From: Iphione sp. A-MEVVRFRX5
Lineage: Eukaryota
Reading direction: 5' to 3'
Assembly: GCA_976226885.1 (NCBI GenBank)
Contig: OZ320314.1
Span: 63,240,001-63,304,000, forward strand
Length of the DNA: 64,000 nucleotides
Shown here: positions 1,967 through 62,951 of the stretch, one piece after another
Position numbering within the stretch: the stretch's first letter is position 1
How the letters are laid out: every line of letters starts with the position of its first letter
The notes under the pieces: model-generated
Seen by the model: the letters and a program-made list of their open reading frames with translations, nothing else
Told to the model about the DNA's origin: nothing
Database searches by the model: none
Made by a program: the position numbers and the translations under genes

Positions 1967-1976
1967 CAAGCCAGGT

Positions 1977-5696: not shown

Positions 5697-5706
5697 TTTT
5701 AGGCGT

Positions 5707-8515: not shown

Positions 8516-8529
8516 CATCCTCGTCGCCA
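8516..8529 (-). promoter_or_regulatory. Primer-binding site complementary to the tRNA-Ser(GCU) 3' end
   Basis: Minus strand TGGCGACGAGGATG; plus strand CATCCTCGTCGCCA equals the recalled 3' end of metazoan tRNA-Ser-GCT plus CCA. Confidence 0.8.
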
Positions 8530-8530
8530 T

Positions 8531-8690
8531 TGTAATATTCCCTTGCTGGGTAATAATAAGACAGATTTAACTTGGGTTTTCTACTCCTTTACTTCACTGC
8601 ACATGTGGTGTTACTCCATGGCTCCTGGGTGGTGGTGTCTCACTCAATGTTCACCCCTAACATGTTACCCGGTGGTACTGGTACACTACA
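8531..8690 (-). repeat. 5' LTR of the gag-PR Gypsy element
   Basis: Matches 277-436; followed by the PBS on the minus strand. Confidence 0.93.
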
Positions 8691-14143: not shown

Positions 14144-14547
14144 GATGTTCTATGTCACATATTTCGACCGGGTTTGTATGTGATATCATCAGATGTGCTA
14201 TCGTAATGATTTGATTGAAAATGATGGTGATGAAAATGATAACAGTGTAGATATGATGATCCGATATTTTGTCGATAGATGGATGAAATCAAAGATGGTT
14301 CAAACGAAAGATAAGATATATGGCGTGCCCTCCCGGAAAACCTGTTTTTGACAGTTAAGCAAAAAGTTTGCAAATATTCCAGTATATTCAAGGACAAAGT
14401 GAAATATACTTCATGGCTAGTACAATGCATATCATGACATCAAGTATTAGTCAATGTACAGACGCGGTAACAGTTTTAAGCAGCAACAGAGCGTGTTAGT
14501 CAAAGAGTTCTTTTCTGACAATTTATCAAGGTCACTGAATGAGTTAC

Positions 14548-15315: not shown

Positions 15316-15413
15316 GTCATGTGACGCTCTGTGGTCACCCAGTGCATGTCTATAAATAGCGTCTCACGCTATGCTGTTTCCATGTTTGGATCCTCGTCCT
15401 CACATAGTTCCCC

Positions 15414-16760
15414 TCAAATTTCTTCTAGGATCTTGCCCATTATATTTTTACCCAAGAAGGTTCCATCCGCGAGCGATTTTGAATTCATGTCCACGCCTGC
15501 TCCCCAAAAAGGGTGTTTATTAGCCTCAATGATCAGATCAGTGCCAGTACCTAGCAGTTCCAGTTTCAGGTCAATATTTTGGGCAAATTTGTGGGTTAGA
15601 ATGTCTTTCATTATGGTGCACCTCTCATCCTTCCATACCTGGCTGCTTGATATACGCTTCCTAAGTTTCTGCAACTTCTCGATGTCGTTCGTCGCTTCAA
15701 TTAAGGCAGCATCATCCTTTTTACCATGCTTAGTAGCTTTGGCCCAGGTGTATGCTTGTTCAGCAGAAATGCATCTTGTTTCACACCAGTCTAGACTGCT
15801 GGTTGTTAGGTTTGAGAAAGGCGCTCCTATACCAGAGAACATCACCTTCCCTTCTTTTGCTACTTGTCTGACTTTTGCTAGATTGTATTCCTCAGGTAGA
15901 GCATGCAGAGCATGGTGATGGTACCATTTTCCGTCAATTTCGATTTTATCATCTCGTAGACGGACCTTCTTCGAGGGTGCCAATTCTTTTACCCTCTTAG
16001 CAATGGCATTTAATTCCTGTCTAGTTTTACGTTCCTGTGGAGATTCATCGTTATTCAGCCAGATTTCTCGACCCTTTAGCTTTGATCTAGCTAATAACAC
16101 CTTCTCCTTGGCTTGCATACGTGCAAAACGGATAAACATTCCGCGTTTACTGTCTTTGTTTTTCCTGGCTGTTCTATATGCATAGTCTATATCATACTCA
16201 TGTATGTCAACCTCCATTGAGGCAAATAGGCCTATACACATCGCCACTGGCGATTCTCCAGGAATCTCATCAAGCCCATCAATATACATATTGTACCTCT
16301 TGTTTAAGACTTGTAGGTTTTGGGCAGATGTTGTGAGCTTATTAACATCGTGTGTGCATTTAATCGGCGCTAATTTATTTTTGTTTTCAGCTCGCAGTTT
16401 ATCGTTTTCAATTTTGAGGTTAGCAACCTCTTTTTTCAGGTCCGCTATCTCCTTGGTGTGACTTTTAACGGTCTCTACCGTTTTCTGTAGAGTATCATTG
16501 ATAGACTTTACCTCAGCTTGAATGCCTTTAGAAATGTTTAATTGTTCATTCGAGCTCTTCTTAATCTCTGCAAGTGATGTTTGCATAGTAACCTGTGTGT
16601 CGCCAGTTTCACCGTCAGCGGCATTGTCACTACCTCCCCTGGGCCTCTTTCTAGACTCAGATCTTCTGCGCTCCGTCCCCTTCACAATATTTATATCCCG
16701 GCGCGATCTATCGGACGGTTCTGCATCTGACATGTTTATAGAGGTTATAGTAAGGAACAT
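15414..16760 (-). CDS. LINE ORF1: basic N-terminus, coiled coil, L1-type RRM/CTD, fused C-terminal NADAR (YbiA-like) domain
   Basis: NMYIDGLDE, IDYAYR, FIRF, IWLNNDES (L1-type ORF1); FSNL, SAEQAY..AKA, W...R..IM...L..KF.QN..L...LL.TG, IEAN..PFWGAG, GKNIMGKIL (NADAR); first ATGs at 16760 and 16733. Confidence 0.85.
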   Translation of the reverse strand: MFLTITSINMSDAEPSDRSRRDINIVKGTERRRSESRKRPRGGSDNAADGETGDTQVTMQTSLAEIKKSSNEQLNISKGIQAEVKSINDTLQKTVETVKSHTKEIADLKKEVANLKIENDKLRAENKNKLAPIKCTHDVNKLTTSAQNLQVLNKRYNMYIDGLDEIPGESPVAMCIGLFASMEVDIHEYDIDYAYRTARKNKDSKRGMFIRFARMQAKEKVLLARSKLKGREIWLNNDESPQERKTRQELNAIAKRVKELAPSKKVRLRDDKIEIDGKWYHHHALHALPEEYNLAKVRQVAKEGKVMFSGIGAPFSNLTTSSLDWCETRCISAEQAYTWAKATKHGKKDDAALIEATNDIEKLQKLRKRISSSQVWKDERCTIMKDILTHKFAQNIDLKLELLGTGTDLIIEANKHPFWGAGVDMNSKSLADGTFLGKNIMGKILEEI

Positions 16761-18543
16761 ACTTACTTTTGTTGGGGGTAGTCTCCTTGTCAGTCTCTTA
16801 GATTGTTTGGCGACGGAAAAGTCAGGTAACAAGCAGGTAGCGGTAGGCCGGTTCACTGTATGCACCTGCTATTTTTAGAGTTTTAATACTTGATCCGGTG
16901 GTTCCGGTAGTTAGTCATGATCTTCTCTCATTATCGCCAACAAGCGAGCATTTTCCAGTTAATTTTCGTTGGTAGCACCATAGTTGTGTGTAATTTTGGT
17001 TTCAGGTAGGTCCACAGTACCTTATATACTGATATTACATGTAATTGCCATGCCAAATGTACACGATTTGTCAAAAAAGGTGTTATTCCAGGAGCGGGGC
17101 GGTTTTTGTGTGACTCACCTTGCCGCCATATTGCCAATCACCCATGGCACCATTGATGAAAATAGAAATAACAAGACTGAACACATAAGCTTCACCTCGT
17201 TTGTTTTTTTTCTAGGGACAGCACTGTTATGGAAAGTATTCACATAAGTGACAGGTACATGAAAGTCAAAATAGCTGAGACAATGAATACCCCGTCCAAA
17301 TTCATCCTAAAATTTGCAAAACTCGTCCTAATATCGGCAAAACGGCCAAATTTGTCCCCAACTCAGCAAAACTCTGCCAAATTCGTCCGAAAATTGGCAA
17401 AACTCTGCGAAACTCATCCGAAAATTGGCAAGACTCAGGTGACAGGTTGAAAATCAATATTAAAATATACAGAAAACAACCCTAAGATGAGTGGTCAGAT
17501 GCTGGAAAAGGCCGGAAATCGCTTGGTCGGTAATCGATAATCTATCATATAGATTATGTATTGAAAGAATTTCCATTCCTTAGTCAAATGGTCGGAATGG
17601 CCGGTTTGGTCGGTAATGGCATATGTCGGGAATCAAGATTCCACTGTATTTGGTTTAGTCATCACCATTTCCTGTCTGATTGTAGAATTTTACAAGAAAT
17701 GGAAACCGCCTGGGCTGATCGTAGGAAAAACCTTTTCTCTTGACATCAAACCATTATAATTTATCAGATACACTTGAATAACTACAGTTAAGCTTGGCTA
17801 AACAAATCCCACTTTCAAGCAAAGCCTATCAATGCAATCCACATTTTATCATTGTCAAATGAACCTGTGTCTTATGTCATTAGTAGAGGAAAAGGGAAAC
17901 TTCTTTCTGTTTGTCTAGGGAAACCTGTTCTCCGTATGTTTCTGAGATACCATTTCTTTTGATATCAAACCACCATAACAGACGATACTTTGGGATAATT
18001 GCAGTCAACATTTGTTAGTTACTCTTGGATGTACACATACCAAAGTTACCAAAGGCCATCAACGTTATGCAAAAAATACAGTCTGCATATTAACATGTCG
18101 TCAATATTCAATAGCACAGGTCAGCAGAACAACTACTACAGTCAAAATTACGTAAGTGTTTCAAATATTAACTCATATATTGGGGGTCTGGGTTTCAAGA
18201 AGTGGTTCCATCATAGGCAGACTAATTATAATTTTGTGCTTTATGTTTCTATTGCAAAGAATTACAACCAACTCTGTCTGATCATTTAGTTGTGACAGTT
18301 AGCATTTCTTATAGAAACTCGCAAAAACGTGATATCATGAACCTTATCATCCTATCTTAACATCTTGATACTGGATGTATAAAAAAACTTTAGTACTGCT
18401 TCTATCATCATATCAACAAGCAACAACCAAAGCTTACAATCTCAGCTTTTCAATGCCACCTTTATTTAATCTCTACAGTGAGGCTTTCTTACCGAAACAA
18501 ACAAAACCACTGCAGCATGATTTGCCACATTACAATGTATACA

Positions 18544-33976: not shown

Positions 33977-35572
33977 TTATTGTCTAATGTCAGATTTGAA
34001 ACTGTTCATTATGTAGAGTGTATCATAGTGTGTAATTGTTTGGTTTGAGGCATTCCATGCTTGTATTATTCTCTGATGGGTGCATTTTGATATATGTGGA
34101 TTGTTGATGTTGTGGGCAGCAATAAATTTATCCTGACTGTCATCATGAAGATTATAGGTGGTTGACCTTAGTGTGCAGTGTTTCTGAAGGAATTGTGGGT
34201 GGAGTTTGAGAGTGGCTTTATATGCTTGGATCAATAGGTGCAGATTGATTCTTTCTCTCACTGTCATCATCCCTGATAGTTCATGGACTTCAATTGTTGG
34301 GGTCAATATATCAAGACTCATTGCACATTCAAGTCCCCTGTTCTGGAGCTTTTGTATCTGTTGAAAGATAGAGAGTGGGACTATCAACCAAATAATGTCC
34401 AGATAGTTCAATGTATGGTATGATTAACATTTTGTAGAGCATAAGATTGGTTCTTGTGTCAAGGAATTTATTGATTATGCTCAATGAGGTTATTTGATGA
34501 CTAACTGTTTTGATCACATGTTGTGCATGAAATTTCATAGTAAGATTGTTGTCCAGGTGTAAGCCAAGATATTTTTATGTAGAGCATTGTTCTACAGAGG
34601 TAGCATTCAGTAACAGTATACAGTTATTCCTGATTGTGTTGATGTTTCTCGAAGTGCGAAAGACCATGTATTTGGTTTTACTAATATTGAGCACCAATTT
34701 GTGGTAGGTTAGCCAGTCATAGATTCGGTATAGGGTAGTTTGTGCAATTTTGACACTTTTGTTGATATTTTTATGACTGATCAATATTACTGTGTTGTCT
34801 GTATACATACTGTAGTGAAGATCCCCAATTGCTTTGTGGATATAATCTATATAAAGGATGAACATTATTGGGCTGAGTACTGATCCTTGGGGTACTCCTG
34901 CCATTATGTTCATCTTGTGTGATAGTGTGCCATTCACTCAGGTTGTCTGTTGTCTATTTTGTAGATAGTCTTTAAGAAGATTAAGAGGTGGTCCTGTAAT
35001 TCCAATTTGCCTAAACTTGTCTAGGAGCATTGTTTGAGATATAGTGTTGAAAGCGTTACTAATGTCCAAGAAAAGTGCTATTGTTTGAAGTTTATTTGCA
35101 TTGTTCTGTCTGATTGTGTCTGTAACGTACTGCACCATGGTAAAGGTTGAGTATCCAGATCTGTAGCCTCCTTATCTATTTGATAATATATTGTTTTGGT
35201 TTATATATTGCATTAGTTGAGTAGGTATAATTTTCTCTAGTAATTTGTGCGTAAGGGGAGCACTGAGATAGGTCTGTAGTTGATAGCTTGAGATCTGTCC
35301 CCTCCTTTGAACAGTGCAGTTACTATTGCTTGCTTCCAGGATGTCAGTATATTCTGAATCTGCAGGATTCTGTTTAACAGAATAGTGAGTGGATGTACTA
35401 GCATCTGAGTTAAATTTAAAATTATTTTCATTGGTATACCATCTATGCATGAGGGTTTGGTTGCCGAAAAGGTTTTGAGTATTTTGGTAACTTCTTCAGT
35501 ATCTGTAGGCTGTAGTGTATCAAAAACTGAGTCTAGTTTGTTGAAGTAATATTGGGTATTAGGTTTCGGTAC
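33977..35572 (-). pseudogene. Decayed CR1/L2-group LINE, RT part (3' fragment)
   Basis: Frameshifted fragments YRPISVLP, FLDISNAFNTI, GVPQGSVLSP, YTDNT, NISKTKYM; continues at 47559 across the Gypsy insertion. Confidence 0.85.
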
Positions 35573-35586
35573 TGTAATGTGATAAT

Positions 35587-36207
35587 GTTACCTGTGGCAC
35601 CACAGCCACTCGTATTGTACTTAGCGAACTCTAAGACTTAGTAGTAACATTGCCTGCGGCACCACAGTTGTGTAGATTGTAGTAGTAACGTTGCCTGTGG
35701 CACCACAGCCACTCGTGTTGTACTCTAAGACGTAATAGTAATACTGCCTGTGGTTCCACAGCCACTTGTGTTGCACTTGATGAACTCTAAGACTTAGTAG
35801 TAACGTTGCCTGTGGCACCACAGTTGTGTAGATCGTAGTAGTGACGTTGCCTGTGGCACCACAGTCACTTGTGTTGTACTTGATGAACTCTAAGACTTAG
35901 TAGTAACGTTGCCTGCGGCACCACAGTTGTATAGATTGTAATAGTAACGTTGCCTGTGGCACCACAGCCACTTGTGTTGTACTTGATGAACTCTAGGACT
36001 TAGTAGTAACGTTGCCTGTGGCACCACAGTCACTTGTGTTGTACTTGATGAACTCTAGGACTTAGTAGTAACGTTGCCTGGGGCACCACAGTCACTTGTG
36101 TTGTACTTGGTGAACTCTAAGACTTTAGTGCATGTGTACTGGAGAGTAAGCTTAGGGCCGCCTGTGGCACCACAGTCATTTATGCTGGATGGCCTGTGGT
36201 ACCACAG
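35587..36207 (+). repeat. U3 tandem array: 12 units with palindromic core CTGTGGCACCACAG, mostly alternating 62-bp and 41-bp units
   Basis: Units counted by eye; 11 units in the 3' LTR (about 46536-47094). Confidence 0.9.
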
Positions 36208-36354
36208 GCATATAGGATGTCTAAGGTCACCTTGAACCCTGGATGGCAAGGCACCTGCAATATGATTGGTAGACAGAAAAAAATCTTTGGAATGTTGTAG
36301 CCTTTTTATTCCATGACTGATACATTGTACTAATCACATGACCAGGAGTTTGGC

Positions 36355-36390
36355 TATAAATATGGGCCCGGTGTGGCCAATAAAACAGTT
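36355..36390 (+). promoter_or_regulatory. LTR core promoter: TATAAAT (36355), AATAAA (36379), Inr-like CAGTT (36386)
   Basis: TATA to Inr spacing about 32 nt; poly(A) signal lies just upstream of the predicted start. Confidence 0.6.
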
Positions 36391-36672
36391 TGCACTTGGA
36401 CCTCACTAGTGGACCTTGTTGATTTGGGATGTAACAAACCCACTTGGATTACCTAGGGTTGGCACTTGGATGTAACCGCACTGGGACTACAGTGAAGTAA
36501 CTGAGACAGGATAGCACTAGACATAGCTGGATCTACCAAGTGGGAGATTTAACAGAGAATTATCCTGGAGTTAGGACTTGGATAAAATATCACTGGAATT
36601 ATAGTGGAGTAACTAAGCGAGTTGGACTTAGTTGGATTACACCAAGTGAGGAAGTCAGCCATTAAATTACAC

Positions 36673-36690
36673 TGGTGGCAGCGGTGGGAT
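36673..36690 (+). promoter_or_regulatory. Primer-binding site complementary to tRNA-Leu (AAG/UAG)
   Basis: TGGTGGCAGCGGTGGGAT, 18 nt complementary to the recalled tRNA-Leu 3' end ATCCCACCGCTGCCACCA. Confidence 0.88.
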
Positions 36691-36703: not shown

Positions 36704-37543
36704 ATGGCTACACACTACGTGGCAGTGGACGACGAAGTGCAGATTCGGGTTCCTAGCCCAGCACCAGCGGGCAGCGATGAGGAAGAAGGTGAGCAATTTG
36801 AACTGGCCCCTGAGCAGCCATTGAAAATGAATGCCATGAAGCCAGAGCGCTTCGATGGTAAGACTGTGGATTGGGACAGTTGGATAGGCCAATTCACGGA
36901 GTGGGCGGATGCTTGCAAGTGGAATGAGAATACCCGCTGTTCCGCATTAACACTATCACTCACTGGCCCAGCGCGAATGTATTATGGGGATCTACCGCCA
37001 GAGGATAAGCGGGATTATGGGTCACGGGTCACTGCGTTGGAGCGACGGTTCGGCAGGCGACGCGACCGAGTGGTGGCCATGCAGAAGCTCTCCAGTATCC
37101 GTAGGCAAAAGGACGAGGACGTTCGCGACCTGGCCGATCGAGTGAGGCGTCTGGTGAGGAGTGCATACCCTGATGTGTCCGGGGAAACCCGGGAGCTGGC
37201 AGCCGTAGCCGCTTTTCAACGATCTTTGGCCGATTCTCTTCATCTCAAGTGCCTGGAGGCGAAGTGTACAACTTTGGACGCCGCTGTACAGGTGGTGGAG
37301 ACCCAAGAGCGCTTCGTCGCTAAGAAGATACAGGTAGTACAGGCCCCCTCAACTCCGGCGTGGACAAAACCTATGGAGGAACTTACCAAGGAGCTCGCGA
37401 AAATCCGAGAGGAGATGCAGACCCGAGAGGAAGTACGAAACAGGAAGCCACGCTACACAAAATGCTTCCAGTGCGGGCAGGACGGCCATTTTCGACGGGA
37501 CTGTCCTGAGTTGCAGGGAAACGGATCCCAGTCGGCCAACTAG
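36704..37543 (+). CDS. gag: Gag (279 aa) with CCHC zinc knuckle
   Basis: PERFDG, WDSWIGQF, LSLTGPA, DLADRVRRLVRSAYP, CFQCGQDGHFRRDC. Confidence 0.93.
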   Translation: MATHYVAVDDEVQIRVPSPAPAGSDEEEGEQFELAPEQPLKMNAMKPERFDGKTVDWDSWIGQFTEWADACKWNENTRCSALTLSLTGPARMYYGDLPPEDKRDYGSRVTALERRFGRRRDRVVAMQKLSSIRRQKDEDVRDLADRVRRLVRSAYPDVSGETRELAAVAAFQRSLADSLHLKCLEAKCTTLDAAVQVVETQERFVAKKIQVVQAPSTPAWTKPMEELTKELAKIREEMQTREEVRNRKPRYTKCFQCGQDGHFRRDCPELQGNGSQSAN

Positions 37544-37550
37544 GCCGGGA
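37516..37550 (+). promoter_or_regulatory. Predicted -1 ribosomal frameshift signal (G GGA AAC plus downstream stem)
   Basis: Slippery heptamer in gag frame; -1 frame is open for 23 codons into pol; CGGCC-AACTA-GGCCG hairpin follows. Confidence 0.75.
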
Positions 37551-37584
37551 TGGTACGACTGGAATAACACTAACGGGGACTACA

Positions 37585-40500
37585 ATGGAACCAGGTCAGG
37601 GACCACGGCTGAAGGTGAGCCTTGATGGAAGGTCAGTAGAACTGTTGATTGACACTGGTGCTGAGGTATCCATTGTTAACCCCCGTGTGGTCCCTGGCCT
37701 GGAGGGAGAAGGGTCCCCGACACGTATCACTGGGGTGGGGGGACATGTTATCCCTACCTTAGGGCATCATACCTGTGTACTGGAGATAGCAGGGGAGAGC
37801 TTCAGTCATTCCTTCCTAGTAGCGGAGGTGGAAGAGGATGGGATCTTGGGAAGCGACTTTCTGTGTCAACACCGCGCAGTGATTGATCTTGCTAGAAAAG
37901 AGATAGCTCTGAACCGGTGCTGCCGAGTGGCTAGACAGGAGACAGAGGTACGAGTGGCCCATGACGTGACATTACCGGCTGGGGCAGGGCTAGCTGTGCT
38001 CATTAACCACCATGGAGAGACACCCCTGATGGTAGAAGGACTATTAGAGTCACAGTGGAGACAGGGGGTTGTTGGGATGAGATGCCTTGTTGAGTCGACC
38101 TTGCCCATGTGGAATACCACCGACACAGAGATATTCCTGAGGCAGGGGACACAGATTGCTGTGGGGGTGCCTACCCAACCCTGGGAGGAAATCCCCGCGA
38201 GCCCCAAGAAAGGTGTGTATGCAATCAGGAAGGCAGTAGCGGATGTCATCCAAGAGTTGGTGAAGCCTACGGATGGGACCCTTACATCTGAACAGCAGGG
38301 GCAACTGAGAAGATTACTAAGAAAACATAGCCCTACTTTTGCCCGGGACCGAGATGACTTGGGGCGCACAGATGTGGTGCAGCACCGCATTTTCACTGAG
38401 GACCGCCATCCTATAAAACAACCCCCGAGGAGACTCCCCCTTTCCAAGAGACAGGAAGAGCGGAAACTAGTTAAGGAGATGAAAGATCTGGGGGTAATCG
38501 TTGAAAGCAGCAGTCCTTGGTCTAGCCCCGTGGTGATGGTAAAAAAGAAGGACGGCACCACTCGCTTCTGTGTCGACTATCGAAAACTAAATGGAAAGAC
38601 GAAGGTTGACGCCTACCCCTTGCCCAGGATCGATGACTCCCTGAGTACCCTGGCGGGGGCCAAATACTTTTGCTCACTTGACCTGGCGTCCGGCTACTGG
38701 CAAGTCAGGATGCACCCAGAAGACCAGGAGAAAACGGCGTTCTCCACCTCGGTTGGGTTGTATGAATTTACGGTAATGCCATTCGGTCTGATTAACGCCC
38801 CAGCAACCTTCGAACGACTAATGGATACAGTGTTGCGCGGCTTGACCTGGGAACAGTGCTTAGTGTACTTGGATGACATTTTGGTCTTTGGGAGGACCTT
38901 CCAAGAAACCATGGCTCGTTTGGATCGGGTGCTGACACGGCTAGCTGCGGCTGGGCTCAAACTCAAGCCCTCTAAATGTCAGCTGTTCCTGCAAGAGATA
39001 GGTTTCCTGGGGCACATCGTCTCACCGAAGGGGGTGGCTACCGATCCCAGTAAGACGAAGAGTATAGAAGAGTGGCCGACCCCGACCTGCACGACAGAAG
39101 TGCGAGCCTTCCTGGGTCTCTGTTCTTACTACCGCCGGTATGTGCCACACTTCGCCAATGTGGCCGCTCCTCTGCACAAGTTGACCGGTACTAAGACGCG
39201 ATTTACCTGGGGAGACCCGGAAGAGGCAGCATTTCGGGATCTGAAGGCGGCTCTAGCGTCTAGCCCAATACTGGGATACCCACAGCCAGAGGGGCGGTAC
39301 TTCCTGGATATCGACGCCAGCAATGTGGGCATTGGAGCTGTACTAGCCCAGAGGCAGGAGGAACGAGAGGTGGTACTGGCCTACTACAGTCGTAGCTTGA
39401 GCGAGACAGAGCGACGGTACTGCGTGATGCGTAGAGAGCTGCTCGCTGTGGTGGCGGCCCTGAAACACTTCCACTTTTACTTGTACGGACAGGAAGTCAC
39501 CGTGCGGACCGATAATGGGGCGGTAAGTTGGCTGCGCCGTATTAAAGACCCAGAGGGGCAGCTAGCCCGTTGGCTGGAACGTGTGGGACAATACAACATC
39601 CAACTGGAGCATCGAGCGGGTCGCTTGAATGCAAATGCGGACGCCCTCTCCCGTAAAACCTGTAGGCAATGCAAACAAGAACACCTAACGGAAGACGCAG
39701 TGATAGAAAAAGTACGAGCTGTGACTCGCAGCCAGTCAACGGGAACTGGACATCCGGAACTACGGATGGCCCAACTCCAAGATGAGGAGGTAGGGCCAAT
39801 CCTTAGAGCTATGGAATCGGACCCCCAACAGCCTGCCTGGGAGTGGGTGGCGCCAGCATCGGCTGCAACGAAGAGCCTTTGGAGACAGTGGAGCCGACTT
39901 ACCGTGAGCGGAGGTCTGCTGCAGAGGAAGTGGACAGGACTTGGCGGGGAGCCTTCCCGGCTGCAGGTGGTCTTGCCAGTCGCCCTTCGAGAAAAAGCCT
40001 TCAAGGAAGTACATGCGGGCCAGATGGGAGCCCACCTAGCTGCCGAACGAACTACCTACCTGGTAGCCCTCGCCTATTACTGGCCGGGGATGACAGGGAA
40101 CATCGCAGCCTGGTGCAGAGACTGTCACTGTGCTCTGCTCAACCGGGATCCTTTCCGGCCGCAGGTGCCTCTGAAAACTTACCTGTCGGGGGAACCCATG
40201 GAACGATGGTCAATGGATGTGGCCGGACCCTTGCCTCTAACTGCGCGAGGAAACCGCTACATCCTGATGGTGGGGGATCACTTCACAAAGTGGCTTGAGG
40301 CGTTCCCCCTACCAGACCAGAAAGCCCCAAAAATCGCCCGGATCCTAGCCGAGGAGGTAATCGCTCGCTATGGTTGTTTCCACGAGCTGCACAGTGACCA
40401 GGGAACAAATTTCTGCAGCGAAATCATCACGGCCCTCTGTGACTATCTGCACATCAAGAAGACCAGGACCACCCCGCGACACCCGCAAAGCGACGGGTTC

Positions 40501-41124
40501 ATTGAACGTAGCTTCCGGACCTTGGGGAAGATGATCAAAGCACATTGCCACGAGAGCCAAGATGAGTGGGACACAGCACTCCCTTTCCTCATGATGGCGT
40601 ATAGGGCTTCACCACAAGCTAGCACCGGGTACACCCCGAACTACCTGATGTTCGGACGTGAGGTTACTCTTCCGGTGCATGCGATGGACGGGCTTCCGTC
40701 GAAAAACCCAGAGGTGGAAGACTTACCTGACCCGGTAGGGGAAATGTTGCGACGACTTCAAGAGGCATATGGTAGAGTCCGGAAGAACCTGAGGACGGCG
40801 GCTCGATCCCAGGCCCGAGCTTATGATCGGAGAATGAAGGGGGAAGCTTTGAAGGCGGGGGCGGTGGTATGGCTCCATGAGGCACAGCCACCAAAAGGGA
40901 GAAGCCCGAAGATTCACTTCCCCTGGTCAGGGCCGTGGCTAGTTACCCGAGCTCTGGATGATGAACGACTGATTGTGCAACGCTCTAAACAAGCGAGGCC
41001 GAGAGTAGTACATCGGAATCGGTTACGGTTGTATCGCGGGGAACGATTACCCCGGTGGATCATCTCCTGGCGGAGGAAGGCGGAGCTCTCCGCCCCAGAT
41101 GGCGGTGGCAGGGTCTCCGTATAG
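37585..41124 (+). CDS. pol: Pol: protease, RT, RNase H, integrase (1179 aa from first ATG; probably expressed as gag-pol)
   Basis: LIDTGA, YLDD, DIDASNVGIG, ADALSR, H..QMGAH...C, DVAGP / SDQG / ERSFR, PWSGPW. Confidence 0.96.
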   Translation: MEPGQGPRLKVSLDGRSVELLIDTGAEVSIVNPRVVPGLEGEGSPTRITGVGGHVIPTLGHHTCVLEIAGESFSHSFLVAEVEEDGILGSDFLCQHRAVIDLARKEIALNRCCRVARQETEVRVAHDVTLPAGAGLAVLINHHGETPLMVEGLLESQWRQGVVGMRCLVESTLPMWNTTDTEIFLRQGTQIAVGVPTQPWEEIPASPKKGVYAIRKAVADVIQELVKPTDGTLTSEQQGQLRRLLRKHSPTFARDRDDLGRTDVVQHRIFTEDRHPIKQPPRRLPLSKRQEERKLVKEMKDLGVIVESSSPWSSPVVMVKKKDGTTRFCVDYRKLNGKTKVDAYPLPRIDDSLSTLAGAKYFCSLDLASGYWQVRMHPEDQEKTAFSTSVGLYEFTVMPFGLINAPATFERLMDTVLRGLTWEQCLVYLDDILVFGRTFQETMARLDRVLTRLAAAGLKLKPSKCQLFLQEIGFLGHIVSPKGVATDPSKTKSIEEWPTPTCTTEVRAFLGLCSYYRRYVPHFANVAAPLHKLTGTKTRFTWGDPEEAAFRDLKAALASSPILGYPQPEGRYFLDIDASNVGIGAVLAQRQEEREVVLAYYSRSLSETERRYCVMRRELLAVVAALKHFHFYLYGQEVTVRTDNGAVSWLRRIKDPEGQLARWLERVGQYNIQLEHRAGRLNANADALSRKTCRQCKQEHLTEDAVIEKVRAVTRSQSTGTGHPELRMAQLQDEEVGPILRAMESDPQQPAWEWVAPASAATKSLWRQWSRLTVSGGLLQRKWTGLGGEPSRLQVVLPVALREKAFKEVHAGQMGAHLAAERTTYLVALAYYWPGMTGNIAAWCRDCHCALLNRDPFRPQVPLKTYLSGEPMERWSMDVAGPLPLTARGNRYILMVGDHFTKWLEAFPLPDQKAPKIARILAEEVIARYGCFHELHSDQGTNFCSEIITALCDYLHIKKTRTTPRHPQSDGFIERSFRTLGKMIKAHCHESQDEWDTALPFLMMAYRASPQASTGYTPNYLMFGREVTLPVHAMDGLPSKNPEVEDLPDPVGEMLRRLQEAYGRVRKNLRTAARSQARAYDRRMKGEALKAGAVVWLHEAQPPKGRSPKIHFPWSGPWLVTRALDDERLIVQRSKQARPRVVHRNRLRLYRGERLPRWIISWRRKAELSAPDGGGRVSV

Positions 41125-41899
41125 GAAGCCGGAATAAGGAGATGGGCGAAGAAGACGTTCGGGACGGGTGTCCTGGAGACTCACATATGAGTCTGAAGAT
41201 AGGAGGACAAACATCCTGGCTGCGCTCGAAATGGTTCGTGGGGAGCGGTGGACGGCCCGGAGCCACTGAGGCTCGAAATAACCACCAGAGGCGTCACAGG
41301 TGGCCTGAGGGTTTATCGACCGGCAACGACCTGTGGGAGGGGAGGCCTCCCTGGTAGCACTCGAAAAGTCCGCGGGGCGATTAGGGAACGCCCGGAAGCG
41401 CATGTCACGCTCAAAAATTCCCTGGAGGAGGATGAACATCCTGGGGTTTACCCGGCCCAAAAGTTCATGGAGGAGGGCGGACCTCCTGGAGTTGCTCGAA
41501 AGGCCTGGCGAGGGAAACGAACACCCTGGAGCGCGCAAAAAGTTTGTGGAACGGGTAGGGAGAGAACGTCCCGGAGGCCGTGGAGCTCGAAACGGTTCGG
41601 TGTAAGAGACGCGGAGAGATCGGAGGATGATGTCGGCATCATTCCCCCGGGAAACATTATGACAGGCAGAAGAAGTAATGAAGCCTAGTTGCGGTATGTG
41701 TCCTCTGGACGGGAGAGAAGACCAAGCTCCAGTCCTTGTCCTCTGGACGGGGGGGTGGCCGAGTTGCCGTCCTTTTCCTCTGGAAGGAGCGAAGCACTCG
41801 GGATGGTGGACGACGGAAACCGAGCTGCGGTCCTTGTCCTCTGGGCGGGCCGTGCTAGAACAAAAGAAAGACGGAGAGACAGTTGAACTATGAACAAAT

Positions 41900-41905
41900 T
41901 TTAAT
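41900..41905 (-). terminator. Predicted poly(A) signal (ATTAAA) of the antisense accessory gene
   Basis: Minus-strand ATTAAA about 125 nt after the stop, followed by a U/GU-rich tract. Confidence 0.5.
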
Positions 41906-42028
41906 TCAAATCACCAACAATGGAACGAAGTGGGTAACAACTGCGAGTGGCGGACGATGAAAGTCATATATATACAAGTTACGGTCGCGGGATGAGTCTA
42001 TGTACAGATGGACGAGCGGAAAGTCCAC

Positions 42029-42728
42029 TTAAGAAGAGGAGGGAGGGGCATCCTCATCCTCGTCCTCGTCGGAGATTAGGATGGGATGCCATGCCAGGTC
42101 CCCGGGCTGCAGGTCGGGGTACCACGACGACAGGAAATCGGCCGGCCAGGAGGAGAGGGAAGCCCGCCCGAGGACTGGCCCCACATCAGGAGAACTGGAT
42201 GGGGCAGGCGAGCGGGATGGCGTGTCCACCGGCGAGCTCGTGTCCTCCGGGGAAGGCGACCGAGGACAGGTGGCGGAGGAGGTAGTGCTCGTAGAGTCAA
42301 CCTCGGTGGACGAGGCCACACCGCTAGAACAGCTATATGAGGGCGAGGCGCTGACGTCAGAGCTCGAGGAGGGCCAGGGGTCCAGCTGACTGGAGGTCAT
42401 CGAACAATGAGACCAGTCGTCCTCATCGGTGTGGCTGGATTCGACGTTGTCGAGGGAGGCGAGGTAGCTGGATACCTCTCCCAAACCGAGGTCGGGGGAC
42501 ACCGAGTCCTGGCGGGACCACAGAGGATCGTCGCTGCGGGGAAGAACTGGCTGGATCACCGGGTGCACAGAGATGCCCACCCAATGATCCGGGCCGTACA
42601 ACCGAATGTTGCCCGGAGCTGGGATGTACAGCGGATGGGTGGACATGGGATGCAACCCATACACCCTTATCGTAGGCCCAGGGGTGCCCACATCAATAAA
42701 CCGATAATACGGATCCGGGGGCTGAGAT
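42029..42728 (-). CDS. Antisense accessory gene, exon 2 (Pro/Tyr-rich segment then Ser/Asp-rich acidic tail)
   Basis: Acceptor T28-AACCCTTCTCTTGTTCCTCTTTCTAG at 42729; phase matches exon 1; open to the stop at 42029. Confidence 0.62.
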
Positions 42729-42750
42729 CTAGAAAGAGGAACAAGAGAAG

Positions 42751-42786
<36 letters not shown>

Positions 42787-42890
42787 GAACTCACCTGGAA
42801 CCTCCAAAGGAACATCAGTAACCGGCTTCAGGAAATCCAACATGGCAACTGGTAACTGGAGAAGGCCCCTAGCTGCATGTAAGTGCCTAC

Positions 42891-43024
42891 CTATCCTCCA
42901 CGGGGGGATAACCTTTCTGCTCTTCAGGGAAGTAATCCTCTCCCACAGGAGGACACCTCTCCTGATCTTCTGGTAGAAAGGCCCCTCCCTGGGAGAGGCC
43001 TGCAAGGTACGCTGGTAGTTCCAT
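42891..43024 (-). CDS. Antisense accessory gene, exon 1 (MELPAYLAGLSQGG...PPVEDR)
   Basis: ATG 43024 (alternative 43051); donor AG|GTAGGC at 42890; spliced ORF 277 aa. Confidence 0.6.
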
Positions 43025-43054
43025 GGGTGTGTACTGTCGGACGTCTAACATCGG

Positions 43055-43090
43055 ACTGACGGGTGACCATCGGTCGCACGCTCTTATATA
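43055..43090 (-). promoter_or_regulatory. Antisense core promoter: TATATAA (43090-43084) and Inr TCAGT (43059-43055)
   Basis: TATA starts 33 nt upstream of the Inr A; ATG 33 nt further downstream. Confidence 0.62.
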
Positions 43091-43108
43091 GCGAACGGAT
43101 AGAATTGA

Positions 43109-43914
43109 CTGGGGAACCGCAGTCGAGCGACAAACTGCGTAATCGTGCCTTGACAATACGACTGCGGAACCACAGCGAACAGATGGAATCGACTGGGGAA
43201 CCGCAGGCGAGCGGGAAACTGCGTAATAGCGCATTGATAATATGACTGTGGAACCACAGCGACATGGAGCATACGACAACAAGACTGCGGGGGCGCAGGC
43301 CGAGGGGACACCTTACCCCTGATACAGCCGACCATACCTTAAGAGGAAGCAGAACAGGAATTCGTGGGCTGTGGTACCACAGTCGAGGAACGACTCGGTG
43401 ACTGGGGACCCACAGTCGAGGAGGGGGGAATCCCGGAAGCGGACAACCCAAACATCCGCTAGCCTCGTTGTCGTTCTTGGGGAAGCCCTCCTGCGCGTTC
43501 GGGGAAGAGGAGCGTTTACTGTTCGAGGAAGAACTGATCGTAGAGAAGAAGACTTCCAAAAAGGAGGAGGAGAAAGACGGGCCACGAAGCAGAGGCAACT
43601 GCGGAACCACAGCGAGAGAGGAAATGCCGCGTTGAACACCAGAGGGAGGAGAATTGACCAGCCTCCTACGAACGGCGGCCGACTTCGTGGCGACTGCGGT
43701 CCCGCAGTGAGTAGCGGCTGCGGCCAACCTCCGTAAGTAAGTAACTGTGGAACCGCAGGGACAGTCGACAGAGGGGGACGGCCTATGACAACTGAGTTAC
43801 GGACCGAAAGTTGCCGATTTTTCTACAGACGGCGGCCGGCTTCGTGGCGACTGCGGTCCCGTAGTGGGTAGCGAACGGCCAACCTCCGTAGGTAAGACGA
43901 CTGCGGAACCGCAG
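43109..43914. promoter_or_regulatory. Internal array of about 11-12 palindromic CTGBGG-NN-CCRCAG sites between the divergent accessory genes
   Basis: Copies at 43109, 43162, 43193, 43246, 43369, 43402, 43599, 43694, 43745, 43851, 43901 (degenerate 43285); embedded in about 84-bp and about 157-bp duplications. Confidence 0.8.
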
Positions 43915-43972
43915 TGATAGTCGACAGGGGAACGGCTTATGACAACTGGGGGACCCCATACGACTGTTGAGG

Positions 43973-45493
43973 ATGCCTCGTGTCAGAATTGAAACGCCCC
44001 GGCTTCCAATTATATGGAAGACAGAGGATCCCCTGCCCCCGGGGGCTGAGTTTTGTGAACTGTGCCTGCCCCGGAAACGTCCTTTCTTTAGGGGATTCTC
44101 GTTTGACCGCCACAAGGAGGAGAAACATCAGGGGAAACGGGGACGAGATCTCCTGTGTCTGTGGTGCCCGAGCGCCATTACCGATGAACACTACTGGGTG
44201 ACGCACCAGCGTCGTTATCACCCGTGGGTTGTTGCTTTGGGGTTAGCGGAAAAACCCTATCGTGTGTTGTGTGATGCTGCTCCCCATGGGGGGAAGACGG
44301 TGCAAGCCCCAGACGACGAACTGACAGACATCCTGGTGCGAGCCCGACAACTGAGACAGGACGGGTGGTATATGAGTGAAGAGGAGGCCATGACCCATCT
44401 GGCTGGGTGTCCACGACGAGCAGCCCCACCCCCGGTCCCGCGACAGATACGACTGGGGTCTCCCCCTCGTGACGAGCAAGACATGGAAGAGGAGGAGGGG
44501 GGCCCTGGGGCTCCCATGGGGGGAGGGGAGCCCGAAGTACCCGCGGGTCCCGACCTACCAGACCTGGAGGGGGCTGAGGGACCGGCACCTGGCCCACCCG
44601 CTCCCCATCAACTCGAGGGGGGTGACATACCTGACGGGGGGGATGACCCCCCAGCGCCGGCCCCAGAGGAACCTGACTACCCCGTGGCCCCTGACGAAGC
44701 TCCAGTGCAGCCAGGAGACCCTCCAGGCCTCAACGACAGACAGGACGGGGCGGAAATGGACGACTTGGCCTTGGTAATGGGGCATTTGCGGGCTGCAGTT
44801 GAGCCAGGGGCAGCGGCCGCGGCCGCCCAGCCCGGCCTCCCGCTTGGCGATGGAGAACAGGCCGCACCCGCCCCGACATCGCCGACGCTACCCGAAGGAC
44901 GTCTAGCCCAGAAGGTTAGACACTTTCTACCCCCCGACTACGTCGAACCGGTGTCACGACGCATGCGGGATGTCCTAGATGGGCTAGTCTGGCCATACAC
45001 CCCGGCTCTGAGGGCTACCATGCTTCCGGCTGTCGTGCGCCTCCCGTCGTTCATCACTTGGCCCCCGCGAAGGTGGGAAGAAATGTCAGGTGCCCAACGT
45101 ATGATGGCCAGCGCATCTTTGGCTTGGGTATTACACCTTGCTGAGGGGGACGGGCCTCCTCCCGACTCCCTCTTAGAGCCTTTGCGCAGGCGGCCCACCC
45201 TACTTCTGCCCGCCGTAGCCTTGCCCGACCACCAGGACTGGGGACGACTGGGGTCGGTCTACGACCTTCATAACTCGACTGTGGACGCAGCACAGAGCGC
45301 TTTGGAGGCTATGCGGTGGGGACCAAGTAAAACACGTATATACGATGTGCGGTGGCAGAGGGAGGTCAGGGAGGTCACAACGCGACGACAAGCCACCCAA
45401 CCGACGGTACACTACGTATGCTTAGGGGCCCCTCCATGCCAGCACCCGGTGGCTGGGGGCGACGTGGGTCCCGCCTTACCACCCGTTGTTTAG
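43973..45493 (+). CDS. Accessory ORF3: two C2H2 zinc fingers, acidic/Pro-rich middle, unrecognised C-terminal domain (506 aa from ATG)
   Basis: CELC-x15-H-x4-H and CLWC-x12-H-x4-H; long open frame; no signal peptide or clear TM helix. Confidence 0.75.
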   Translation: MPRVRIETPRLPIIWKTEDPLPPGAEFCELCLPRKRPFFRGFSFDRHKEEKHQGKRGRDLLCLWCPSAITDEHYWVTHQRRYHPWVVALGLAEKPYRVLCDAAPHGGKTVQAPDDELTDILVRARQLRQDGWYMSEEEAMTHLAGCPRRAAPPPVPRQIRLGSPPRDEQDMEEEEGGPGAPMGGGEPEVPAGPDLPDLEGAEGPAPGPPAPHQLEGGDIPDGGDDPPAPAPEEPDYPVAPDEAPVQPGDPPGLNDRQDGAEMDDLALVMGHLRAAVEPGAAAAAAQPGLPLGDGEQAAPAPTSPTLPEGRLAQKVRHFLPPDYVEPVSRRMRDVLDGLVWPYTPALRATMLPAVVRLPSFITWPPRRWEEMSGAQRMMASASLAWVLHLAEGDGPPPDSLLEPLRRRPTLLLPAVALPDHQDWGRLGSVYDLHNSTVDAAQSALEAMRWGPSKTRIYDVRWQREVREVTTRRQATQPTVHYVCLGAPPCQHPVAGGDVGPALPPVV

Positions 45494-45629
45494 AGAGCCG
45501 ATAGCCATATGTTCTACCCTAGTAGGGCGTGATGGGTGACACAAATTGTTATGATCGGATGTTTGATGCTAAGCGCTGTTATCATTGTTGACTGTGATGT
45601 ACCCCTACCGTTGTTACTGCAATTAACTT

Positions 45630-46445
45630 AATCATTACCTCCTAAGGAGGCTTGGCCAGATTACCCCGTGGATAGATGATCATTACCTCCCGTGGAGGCT
45701 TGACCGGATTACAGTAAGGATGTTAAATGAAAAGGGGACTGTACCCCACAAAAAAAACTGTTATTGGACGATGCATAAGCTGTGATTGGTTGTTGTTATA
45801 ATACTGTGTTGTTGCCTAAGTGGATCACTACCTCCTAGGGAGGCTTTGCCAGAGTGTAGTAAGGATGTTACAGGAAAGGACAGAAGGGGACTGTACCCCA
45901 CAAAAAGAGTGTTAAGGAGTTGTTTTCAACCAATGTATAAGTAGTGATCATTGATCGTATGCTGTTGTGATTTTTTTTAGATGAATCAATTACTACCTCC
46001 TAAGGAGGCTTTGCCAGATTGGACCCCAGGGGGGGTAAGAGTAGGTATCCCAGATTGTTTTGATAAGGAATGTCTGTGATCTTTTGTTTATTGTGATATC
46101 TTGTGTTACCTAGACAATTACTACCTCCTACGGAGGCTTTGCCAGATTCATCCACATTTACTCAAGAGTTGTTAGAGTGAGGATGTTAACAGTTAAAAAA
46201 GGGGGACTGTACCCCCACAAAAAGAGTGAGGCTCTTACAGTTACTGGGATGTTTATCTGTGATCTTTTGGGTTATTGTGATATCACTACCTCCTAGGGAG
46301 GCTTTGCCAGATTCAATGATTAACTTGTATACTGAGGAAAAAATTTGCTGCTTAGGTGACCATTACCCCCTATGGGGGCTTTGCTAAATTTACCAGTATT
46401 TATCCAAGGAGTTAGTAGATCAACTGTTATCCTCTACGGAGGCTT
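45630..46445 (+). repeat. Dispersed array of 8 CCTCC-NNN-GGAGG dyads and 3 GGGG-ACTGTA-CCCC dyads upstream of the PPT
   Basis: Dyads at 45638, 45686, 45831, 45996, 46124, 46289, 46366, 46431; second type at 45734, 45886, 46201. Confidence 0.85.
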
Positions 46446-46508
46446 ATGTTGGCTCAGGATGTACTTCTCAGGGAAACAGGTTTTCACTTCCCCCGGTAGA
46501 CTATTTTT

Positions 46509-46521
46509 AAGGTGAGGAGAG
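46509..46521 (+). promoter_or_regulatory. Polypurine tract
   Basis: AAGGTGAGGAGAG directly before the 3' LTR TGTAATG. Confidence 0.75.
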
Positions 46522-47558
46522 TGTAATGTGATAATGTTACCTGTGGCACCACAGCCACTCGTATTGTACTTAGCGAACTCTAAGACTTAGTAGTAACATT
46601 GCCTGTGGCACCACAGTTGTGTAGATTGTAGTAGTAACGTTGCCTGTGGCACCACAGCCACTCGTGTTGTACTCTAAGACGTAATAGTAATACTGCCTGT
46701 GGTTCCACAGCCACTTGTGTTGCACTTGATGAACTCTAAGACTTAGTAGTAACGTTGCCTGTGGCACCACAGTTGTGTAGATCGTAGTAGTGACGTTGCC
46801 TGTGGCACCACAGTCACTTGTGTTGTACTTGATGAACTCTAAGACTTAGTAGTAACGTTGCCTGCGGCACCACAGTTGTATAGATTGTAATAGTAACGTT
46901 GCCTGTGGCACCACAGCCACTTGTGTTGTACTTGATGAACTCTAGGACTTAGTAGTAACGTTGCCTGGGGCACCACAGTCACTTGTGTTGTACTTGGTGA
47001 ACTCTAAGACTTTAGTGCATGTGTACTGGAGAGTAAGCTTAGGGCCGCCTGTGGCACCACAGTCATTTATGCTGGATGGCCTGTGGTACCACAGGCATAT
47101 AGGATGTCTAAGGTCACCTTGAACCCTGGATGGCAAGGCACCTGCAATATGATTGGTAGACAGAAAAAAATCTTTGGAATGTTGTAGCCTTTTTATTCCA
47201 TGACTGATACATTGTACTAATCACATGACCAGGAGTTTGGCTATAAATATGGGCCCGGTGTGGCCAATAAAACAGTTTGCACTTGGACCTCACTAGTGGA
47301 CCTTGTTGATTTGGGATGTAACAAACCCACTTGGATTACCTAGGGTTGGCACTTGGATGTAACCGCACTGGGACTACAGTGAAGTAACTGAGACAGGATA
47401 GCACTAGACATAGCTGGATCTACCAAGTGGGAGATTTAACAGAGAATTATCCTGGAGTTAGGACTTGGATAAAATATCACTGGAATTATAGTGGAGTAAC
47501 TAAGCGAGTTGGACTTAGTTGGATTACACCAAGTGAGGAAGTCAGCCATTAAATTACA
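46522..47558 (+). repeat. 3' LTR (1037 bp)
   Basis: Matches the 5' LTR minus one 62-bp unit; followed by the GTAC TSD. Confidence 0.95.
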
Positions 47559-48471
47559 GTACTTTACTGTGTTATCTGCCCTATGTAAGTGAAATGTTCG
47601 TTGAGTATATTTGCTATTGCAGTGTTGTCAATAATAGTGGTGTTGATTGTTTTCAGTTATCTAATTGTCAGGTCATCGTCTTTCTTGTTTGGTAGCAGTG
47701 TTTTGAGTTCTTTCCAATACTTTGCTGGTTTGTACTTGTATTGTGCTAGTCTGGATTGTATATAATTCCTTTTAGCTCATCTCATTTTGGAATTTAGTCG
47801 GTTTCTTAATTTCCTTGAAATTGCCAAATGTTTAGGGTCCTTAGATAGTTTATATTGTTTCAAAATATATTTTTTTTGCCTTCTTTGTTGAGTGATGTCT
47901 TTATCTATTCATTTCCGCATGTTAATTGGGATTCTCTTGTATTTGAAAGGGGCATGAGTGTTTAACTTGCTTTGATAATATGATATATTTGTTCCCAGTG
48001 TTGTTCAGTAGTGGTGTTGGTGTTGATGTCTGTAAGTGCTGTTGATATTTCTTTGGCAAAAGTTTCCTGATTAAAGAAGGTGTAGTCACAGACATAGATT
48101 GTTTCATATTTCAGTTTGACATGAGGATTTCTTCTAGTGTATGTCCAGAAGTGGTCGCTGAGATTTATTGAGATAGTGCCTGATTTCTCATATTTCACAG
48201 GTGTATTTACTAATATAAGATCAATTCTTGTAGAACAGGTTATTGTAATTCGAGTTGGTGTGTGAATAAGATTTTTGAATCCAAGTGAATTTTCCAAAGT
48301 TTTCAATTTCCTAAATTGGGGTGTTCTAGTCTTGTTACAGTCAATGTTAAAGTCTCCTAGTATAATTGTTTCATTACTATGACTGTCAATTAAGTTCAGG
48401 ACATTCTGGAGTTTACTAAAACATGCATCTATATTCCTGCTTGGTGGTCTGTATAGTGTTAATATAAACAA
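47559..48471 (-). pseudogene. Decayed LINE ORF2, endonuclease part (5' fragment of the element split by the Gypsy insertion)
   Basis: LYRPP, ILGDFNI, PTRIT, RIDLI, SDH motifs. Confidence 0.85.
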
Positions 48472-62225: not shown

Positions 62226-62951
62226 TTACCTTCTCCTGTATTCATCAAACTGAGGAGAATGCCATGTCTTGTAGCAATTCCTGTCAACTTTCAAGCAGAG
62301 GTTAACTCTGCAACTTGGCTCTGGACACCACCATGGGGTTTTTTGTTCTTTCTTCAATAATGTGTAGCAAACATAGCAGTTGCGGCGGCCTCCAGAAGGA
62401 ACAGGCATGTGTGATATGCAATAGTCCTTCTTCTCCAGCAGTTGTCGAGGGAGTTGAAATAGAGGGTGTTCTTCATCCTCAGATATATTCGCCAACTGTC
62501 GCACAAGTTCCTCTCGGAAGGCTAGATGGCTGTATCCTGCAGGTCTGTTAAGTCTCTCATCACCTGGATGTGCTGCACGCCAAGCTTCAAACATGATGTA
62601 TGAGTTGAGTATTGCCATGTCCAGAATGTGGAAGAAAAGCACCTTCCACCAACGTACAGACTTCAACAAGATGCAGTACCTCTTGAGAAGTTGATCTGAC
62701 AAATCTACGCCGCCCATGAAATGGTTGTAGTCATGGACGGCGGTAGGTTTCCTGGTTGTGACTTGGTGGTACTGCCGTTGATTATTCTTTACTGTTCTTG
62801 TGGTATTCACATAGTCGTTTGCAGAGTGGTATGTAGAACACACACACACAGGCTTGCGATCTATCCACTGCAGGCACAAAATACCATCGACCCTCTTCCA
62901 GCGCATGTCACCTCTAGCATGTTGTTTGACCCAGGACTTGTCTTTCATGCA
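62226..62951 (-). CDS. piggyBac transposase (PGBD4-like), last exon with third catalytic Asp and Cys-rich domain
   Basis: Acceptor TATAG at 62952; WIDRKPV, YNHFMGGVDLSDQ, WWKVLFFH, CYVC...CPEPSC...C...C. Confidence 0.9.
   Translation of the reverse strand, partial: CMKDKSWVKQHARGDMRWKRVDGILCLQWIDRKPVCVCSTYHSANDYVNTTRTVKNNQRQYHQVTTRKPTAVHDYNHFMGGVDLSDQLLKRYCILLKSVRWWKVLFFHILDMAILNSYIMFEAWRAAHPGDERLNRPAGYSHLAFREELVRQLANISEDEEHPLFQLPRQLLEKKDYCISHMPVPSGGRRNCYVCYTLLKKEQKTPWWCPEPSCRVNLCLKVDRNCYKTWHSPQFDEYRRR

Follow-up and report, generated by a model that had tools for sequence, protein, structure and literature searches.

ORF3, an open reading frame downstream of pol in a Ty3/gypsy element, probably encodes a protein that, as a dimer, occupies palindromic sites in the LTR and internal promoters of its own element and activates them, which is the reading that we favor on balance for this part of the window (the whole stretch of 64,000 nucleotides analyzed). 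In the proposed mechanism, ORF3 would be a sequence-specific regulator that the element supplies for its own transcription (most likely an activating or anti-silencing one), and the internal promoter that drives ORF3 would also serve, in the opposite direction, a spliced antisense gene. One palindrome would take up a pair of ORF3 molecules, each reading a 6-bp half-site by two fingers; the internal promoter has 5-17 such palindromes and the LTR U3 has several. Binding would switch on the genomic RNA and the accessory genes, a positive feedback acting in trans on every family member. We infer that ORF3 is expressed, binds zinc, forms dimers, binds DNA and acts in the activating direction.

The Element Carrying ORF3

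The Ty3/gypsy element around ORF3 is complete (Table 1), with LTRs, a primer-binding site (presumably of the tRNA-Leu type), a polypurine tract, a target-site duplication, and a pol gene in the order PR-RT-RH-IN. The insertion is very young: the 5' and 3' LTRs differ by 1 substitution in 1037 aligned bases and by one 62-bp repeat unit. The closest named relatives of its pol are animal, which points to an animal host. KRAB, connexin, and the arthropod cuticle motif gave no match in the genome; as the controls gave no signal either, this is at most a hint of a host outside the vertebrates and arthropods. We distinguish four families of such elements (RNase H-IN proteins about 70-72% identical to the window's), and these form one clade in the RT/IN phylogeny, apart from six database proteins that carry no reliable clade labels.

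Table 1. Positions of features of the ORF3-bearing element in the window.
Feature	Position	Strand	Details
Target-site duplication GTAC	35569..35572, repeated 47559-47562	.	
5' LTR	35573..36671	+	U3 tandem repeats with 12 palindromes (35592-36207); TATAAA 36355
Primer-binding site	36673..36690	+	Read in sequence
gag with CCHC knuckle	36704..37543	+	
pol, PR-RT-RNase H-IN (Ty3/gypsy)	37510..41124	+	-1 frame relative to gag
Antisense gene, predicted last exon, 232 codons	42029..42728	-	N-terminal part conserved, rest Ser/Pro-rich
Antisense gene, predicted phase-2 intron, 162 nt	42729..42890	-	GTAGG donor, T28 tract, AG acceptor
Antisense gene, predicted first coding exon	42891..43024	-	ATG 43024, 44 codons + 2 nt
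Antisense gene, TATATAA box	43084..43090	-	In 7/7 cassette types examined
Putative internal divergent promoter region	43109..43914	.	CpG-island-like; 10 palindromes CTGBGG-NN-CCVCAG
ORF3, 506 aa	43973-45493	+	N-terminal domain 1-165, linker 165-305, helical "WPP" domain about 305-490
ORF3, fingers 1 and 2	44054..44221	+	C28, C31, H47, H52; C62, C65, H78, H83
3' non-coding region	45494..46521	+	Type-specific repeats; GGGG-N5/6-CCCC-ACAAAA recurring; polypurine tract directly before 3' LTR
3' LTR	46522..47558	+	11 palindromes (46541-47094); AATAAA 47266

Two non-coding parts of the element have features of their own. The 900 bp that follow pol (41124-42030) are GC-rich, with short internal repeats (TGTCCTCTGG...) and a CpG observed/expected ratio of 0.97, and are mostly 91-99% conserved within family 1. 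In the 3' non-coding region (45494-46300 in the window; also in copies L036, L040, L042, L044, and L020), the motif GGGG-N5/6-CCCC-A[CT]AAAA, a possible RNA element, is found in 6/7 types examined and was not found in type F; the repeats around it differ. Other long frames within 41047-43796 are not conserved in family 2 and were dropped.

ORF3 Is Conserved and Linked to pol

When copies were chosen by their pol (40 scored from 210 candidates), ORF3 lay downstream of it in 40/40: within 6 kb in 36, frameshifted in 3, and behind a large insertion in 1. Loci chosen instead by the antisense exon have pol, the antisense exon, and ORF3 together in 19/20 cases, and a search of the element's own genome with ORF3 itself gave 119 matches (85 of the 6711 candidates scored). 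The two finger motifs, already read in the 506-aa frame by the earlier note, recur in 29/29 intact frames of families 1-2 (27 distinct loci) with all eight Cys/His residues, which are also kept in 13/13 representative rows of families 1-3 (one frameshifted row excluded) and likewise in family 4.

Close types differ in ORF3 at a dN/dS ratio of 0.03-0.09; for distant types, the folded parts give 0.05-0.22 where dS is measurable. These ratios argue that ORF3 is a real gene under purifying selection. Positive selection on its codons was ruled out, with dN/dS well below 1 throughout. As ORF3 trees group by family in the same way as pol trees, the gene appears to be old in the lineage rather than recent cargo. 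The transcription-factor-like accessory protein proposed in the earlier note is thus conserved within the element family; linkage to pol in 40/40 copies and ligands kept in four families contradict the two outcomes that it named as fatal, i.e., a recently transduced host gene or loss of the Cys/His residues.

The ORF3 Protein

The fingers follow the classical C2H2 pattern (C-x2-C-x12-H-x3/5-H, ligands and hydrophobic core kept), finger 2 canonically and finger 1 with x14 or x15 in the middle, and their eight ligands are invariant. Finger 1 reads C28-x2-C31-x15-H47-x4-H52, a non-canonical spacing, and finger 2 reads C62-x2-C65-x3-I-x5-W-x2-H78-x4-H83, exactly as first described. Both are atypical in other respects: in Pfam they fall below the cut-off (best E 0.087-0.097; zf-C2H2 clan sub-threshold at E 0.087-0.48), the nine residues that join them are of another kind than the TGEKP linker, which is absent, and the helix of finger 2 is without the usual Arg/Lys/Asn base contacts. 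The AlphaFold model of ORF3 is weak (mean pLDDT 48.9), reaching about 70 across parts of residues 10-165; it gives finger 1 two short strands and a helix at pLDDT about 70, with finger 2 below 50. A single-sequence fold of residues 1-165 was uninformative (pLDDT 36).

The linker (165-305, 141 aa) contains 23% D/E, 21% P, 16% G, and 2% K/R in the window copy, and had been taken to resemble an acidic activation domain. As a general feature this does not hold: D/E content is 21-23% in family 1 and falls to 7-12%, with 17-26% S/T, in most types of families 2 and 3; type J has 18% and family 4 has 17%. The acidic linker thus appears to be largely limited to one family. The C-terminal domain suspected earlier is borne out insofar as residues of about 305-490 are conserved and predicted to be helical, and this domain may be as likely an effector or dimer module as the acidic linker.

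We found none of the hallmarks of an envelope protein (signal peptide, fusion peptide, TM anchor) in ORF3, in agreement with the earlier note. The N-terminus is not hydrophobic, and the highest 19-residue Kyte-Doolittle mean is only 1.09 in the window copy (0.69-1.28 across six types), so that no TM helix is expected. Expression from an env-type spliced RNA was also rejected, there being no conserved splice acceptor before the ATG. The "env position" assigned to ORF3 holds only loosely: the gene lies downstream of pol, but its start is 2.85 kb past the end of pol and another gene, in antisense, intervenes.

The Antisense Gene and a Putative Internal Divergent Promoter

The intervening gene lies on the minus strand, back to back with ORF3. 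Its splicing and start sites are predicted from conserved signals: directly past the GTAGG donor at 42890 comes an in-frame stop, and the acceptor lies at 42729. Another conserved donor, located at 42794 and close to the T tract, may give an alternative splice form. The layout is identical in families 2, 3, and 4; the gene is present in all four families, with dN below dS in 5/5 comparisons. It follows the gag-pol backbone rather than the ORF3 cassette and is nearly constant within a family. At one locus (L084/L085, G000:C10:64245472-64263000), the type-A ORF3 is intact and the antisense exon is split by an insertion of ~14 kb.

The region between the two genes has a CpG observed/expected ratio of 1.09, vs. 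0.40-0.44 in its flanks, and we read it as a putative internal divergent promoter.

A Palindrome Repeated in the LTRs and the Putative Internal Promoter

The 14-bp palindrome CTGBGG-NN-CCVCAG occurs 33 times in the window, where 0.02 are expected: 12 and 11 times in the two LTRs and 10 times in the internal promoter, with none in gag-pol or elsewhere. These sites lie just upstream of two TATA boxes, those of the LTR and of the antisense gene. Genome-wide, a stricter form of the pattern has 3317 matches, vs. 268 for the control. When a single copy was taken for each of seven cassette types, the palindrome core was present 7-17 times per copy (76 sites; 0.4-0.6 expected per region), and the spacer is strictly kept, being 2 bp long at 73 sites vs. 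1-6 sites for any other length.

An RNA hairpin was considered and ruled out. The variable position 4 forms a Watson-Crick pair in 35/76 sites (24.8 if independent) and is unpaired in 25/76, and G-U pairs show no strand bias (7 vs. 9). The palindrome behaves instead like a site for a dimeric DNA-binding protein, as judged from these substitution patterns. Since the palindromes do not covary like hairpins, the option of an RNA-export factor, raised in the earlier note, is weakened.

Two further observations concern the sites of other families. In families 3 and 4 (L086-L094, L106, and L107), both halves of the palindrome contain a CpG; as the genome is depleted of CpG, binding there could be methylation-sensitive. 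At G000:C1:7375296-7386490, two clusters of family-3 palindromes lie in opposite orientation ~1 kb apart, possibly in a rearranged or nested copy.

Covariation of the Motif and the Finger-2 Helix

The inner triplet of the half-site, BGG, is common to the four families, and the outer triplet is family-specific (TYG or TCG in the relatives of family 1). The outer bases of family 1 are C in 86/100 and T in 94/100 half-sites; those of family 2 are T in 55/74, then T (42) or C (30), mostly followed by GGGG; those of family 3 are T in 65/68 and C in 66/68; and those of family 4 are mostly TC or CC. The family-3 motif has 1837 matches genome-wide vs. 283. In every family with LTRs read, the LTRs carry their own family's variant. 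Some types can still be aligned (70-91%) over the promoter half that adjoins the antisense gene, and the palindromes there are therefore shared by descent. The half adjoining ORF3 does not align, and types B and C have no BLAST match there, but the family's motif variant is still kept. Separate target sites for each cassette type within a family were ruled out, as the sites are common to the types.

The finger-2 helix (positions -1 to +6) follows the same family boundaries, being near-constant within a family and different between families: DEHYWVT in family 1, DVH[SA]W[VA]A in family 2, DEQS[WL]V[SAG] in family 3, and DDQTWVG in family 4. Finger 1 keeps G-x-S-[LFM]-x-x-H. Type J, only 51-54% identical to the other family-3 types, nonetheless has the same helix and the TCG site. 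By the canonical rule of three bases per finger, the six specified bases of a half-site suit two fingers. By the antiparallel rule, finger 1 would read the inner triplet that the families share and finger 2 the outer triplet that varies between them, but single residue-to-base assignments do not fit the canonical finger code cleanly.

Three families count independently toward this covariation: the search that led to family 4 used the family-3 motif, and the motif of family 4 is therefore not independent. In addition, ORF3 and pol trees agree at the family level, so shared descent alone makes both helix and motif family-specific, and the antisense protein covaries with family equally well.

Proposed Activation and the Alternatives

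The transactivator considered in the earlier note gains independent support from the family-specific palindromes in both promoters. Sequence alone cannot discriminate between an activator, an anti-silencer, and a repressor. ORF3 could thus act on the same palindromes as a repressor or copy-number brake, or as a DNA mark for integration or chromatin positioning. The evidence from the DNA sites is all blind to direction, the acidic linker is not kept in families 2 and 3, and fold searches pointed to no function for the conserved C-terminal domain, all of which would suit such a role. We nevertheless regard it as unlikely, as the palindromes cluster just upstream of the two TATA boxes and young, multiplying copies retain an intact gene (LTR pairs at least 99.3% identical in 13/19 copies; two copies without a measurement).

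It is similarly improbable that the palindromes are sites for host factors (RUNX- or Rel-like) and that ORF3 acts on RNA or proteins, e.g., in a CERV- or Rev-like export of unspliced genomic RNA or as a silencing antagonist. When palindrome halves are matched to the RUNX and Rel consensus words, the RUNX-like half TGYGGT is found in 40/76 sites of families 1-2, and the family-2 sites resemble the Rel consensus. However, the RUNX-like word stands on both halves in only 4/76 sites, despite the strict symmetry and spacer; the sites of families 3 and 4 read CGTGGT, off the RUNX-like consensus; and a single host factor would not fix different outer bases across families of one genome. The strong splice signals in the element and the atypical fingers speak for this reading, as does the precedent of CERV in a gypsy element (PMC10309623).

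We consider it very unlikely that the palindrome binder is the antisense protein, with ORF3 as its partner or in an unrelated role. The antisense protein is found in all four families, is under purifying selection, and is near-constant within a family like the motif, but it has no Pfam match and no recognizable nucleic-acid-binding motif and is mostly Ser/Pro/acidic, whereas ORF3 has two fingers. That ORF3 is a recently transduced host gene, neutral cargo, or an unrecognized envelope or fusion protein, as might be suggested by its position between pol and the 3' LTR and by one weak outside relative (P0123, E 1.6e-4), is scarcely credible in view of purifying selection with saturated synonymous sites, pol linkage in 40/40 copies, an ORF3 tree congruent with that of pol across families, the absence of a signal peptide and TM segment, and the fact that all fetched own-genome matches of P0123 (12/17) are element copies.

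Cassette Exchange on Near-Identical Backbones

Types A, B, B', and C of family 1 mostly share 32-70% identity over the cassette (~43050 to 46000; up to 84% in single 250-nt bins), vs. 91-99% over gag-pol and most of the LTR. Between these types, dS is 1.8 to saturated in ORF3 and 0.04-0.07 in pol. Copies do not group by type in an RT tree of 12 copies, where B', C, D, and D form a supported clade within about 1%, and for each of the types A, B', C, D, E, and F there is a copy whose LTRs are at least 99.7% identical. Types E and F of family 2 have a pol dS of 0.095 and saturated ORF3, and in family 3, pol is 96-99.6% identical and the folded parts of ORF3 51-83%. These comparisons indicate that ancient ORF3 cassettes have been swapped, presumably via template switching, onto backbones 95-99% identical in three families. 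A backbone sweep through older lineages would equally give this pattern.

A polymorphism this deep, among cassettes whose backbones are nearly identical, needs to be explained in terms of host-transposon conflict. With one site per family and a trans-acting protein, the whole family would benefit from a rare cassette able to evade sequence-based silencing. Under balancing selection of this kind, any allele would switch on all family members in trans, and a rare allele would escape the sequence-based silencing of the host. More tentatively, it is possible that an env-less animal gypsy lineage has evolved its own module like those of complex retroviruses, consisting of a zinc-finger transactivator of a new family that acts on a palindrome private to one element family (present both in the LTR and in the internal divergent promoter), a spliced antisense gene, and several ancient, freely exchanged cassette alleles per family under balancing selection.

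Relation to Known Systems

Foamy-virus Tas/Bel1 binds the LTR and an internal promoter (PMC4929722; see also PMC13220597 and PMC8670036). It is, like the proposed ORF3, a retroelement-encoded transactivator that binds both promoters and is itself expressed from the internal one, between pol/env and the 3' LTR, and by analogy ORF3 most likely works like Tas; shared cis sites in the LTR and the internal promoter are the Tas-like feature seen here. In contrast, Tas belongs to env-bearing Retroviridae, whereas the Ty3/gypsy element described here lacks env and combines repeated palindromes with an antisense partner gene and an ORF3 protein that has C2H2-type fingers. ORF3 matched no viral protein in sequence or fold. 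We found no homology to Tas in Pfam, PDB sequences, or BFVD with the weak ORF3 model, and because that model is weak, the blank does not exclude homology.

In Arabidopsis, VANC of the VANDAL elements is a sequence-specific TE factor with short target motifs in non-coding tandem repeats that differ between related families (PMC5735166). The candidate motifs of the ORF3 element resemble these targets, being repeated outside the coding regions and varying from one related family to the next. However, VANDALs are plant DNA transposons with anti-silencing shown, whereas anti-silencing by ORF3 would be an analogy, with no homology detected, and the candidate sites of ORF3 take the form of palindromes within the promoters of a retrotransposon. 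A further regulator encoded by a TE is TnpA (bioRxiv 10.64898/2026.08.24.746577).

The plant Ty3/gypsy elements Retand, Grande, and RIRE2 have conserved extra sense and antisense ORFs (TRP28), whose function is open, in a long region between pol and the 3' LTR (PMC11963269). They resemble the element described here in this long region, in extra ORFs of which some are antisense, in family-specific tandem repeats, and in a proposed regulatory role. They differ in being a plant lineage for which the available text names no target site, whereas the animal element has a sense zinc-finger gene, a predicted spliced antisense gene, and a candidate site, neither gene having a significant Pfam match. 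CERV of the C. elegans element Cer1 is a novel nuclear accessory protein, made from a spliced Cer1 mRNA, that exports genomic RNA (PMC10309623); we found no similarity of it to ORF3, whose candidate cis motif shows the behavior of a DNA site. The Errantivirus-type env is also a third ORF downstream of pol (PMC13524379), but ORF3 has no signal peptide or TM anchor and no conserved splice acceptor before its ATG, and lies 2.85 kb from pol, vs. at most 1 kb allowed in that survey. The accessible text of the same survey of env-bearing metazoan elements yielded no mention of zinc fingers (PMC13524379), and giant planarian elements carry other extra domains (PMC6431247). In the full-text literature searched, we found no gypsy element in which a zinc-finger ORF goes together with palindromes as its cognate sites; most subscription journals, Repbase, and supplements lay outside this scope, and such an element may be annotated there.

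If the activator reading toward which we lean is right, ORF3 would be a TE-encoded trans-regulator, of a kind already known; new would be a protein of no described family, its candidate site, the antisense partner, and the cassette polymorphism. Extra ORFs are common in LTR retrotransposons and their function is a standing question. Here a protein and its candidate target are found together in four natural pairs, which makes that question directly testable. On the activator reading, a simple retrotransposon would, like a complex retrovirus, be able to encode a transcription factor of its own, to which thousands of host-genome sites (the 3317 and 1837 matches of two family motifs) could respond.

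Homology and Fold Searches

Homologs of ORF3 numbered 0 among 8000 candidates (lengths 278-886), and nothing significant was found in PDB sequences or Pfam. A profile search of 1.84 billion representatives gave three matches: P0122 (a repeat artifact), P0124 (a generic C2H2 protein), and P0123, a weak outside relative on a 2.4-kb contig that has the "WPP" region in common with ORF3 (E 1.6e-4, hhalign probability 77%). The reciprocal search with P0123 led back to ORF3 copies, and no further relative of P0123 was present among 137 candidates. The ESM Atlas had no match for ORF3 310-500 or P0123, and none of the 7 and 105 pattern matches in viral and metagenome contigs, respectively, was confirmed as an ORF3 relative. 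In the structure comparison, which the earlier note had proposed for the C-terminal domain, Foldseek with the weak ORF3 model gave no match at E<=0.001 against PDB and BFVD, and the best VIA-align Z was 3.6, on long helices. None of these blanks implies a new fold.

Other Elements in the Window

Three other transposable elements were seen in the window. A LINE-like element has an EN-RT frame at 11369-14149, a frame at 14548-15363 with no Pfam match, and an upstream frame at 15414-16868 (minus strand) that combines a coiled coil with a NADAR domain (Pfam E 2e-20). A tyrosine-recombinase (DIRS-like) retrotransposon occupies 271-8690 on the minus strand, with an RT at 2968-4854, a weak recombinase match at 1977-2975, and identical 161-bp repeats at 276-436 and 8530-8690. 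Finally, 62226-62951 (minus strand) is a fragment of a DDE_Tnp_1_7 (piggyBac-like) transposase.
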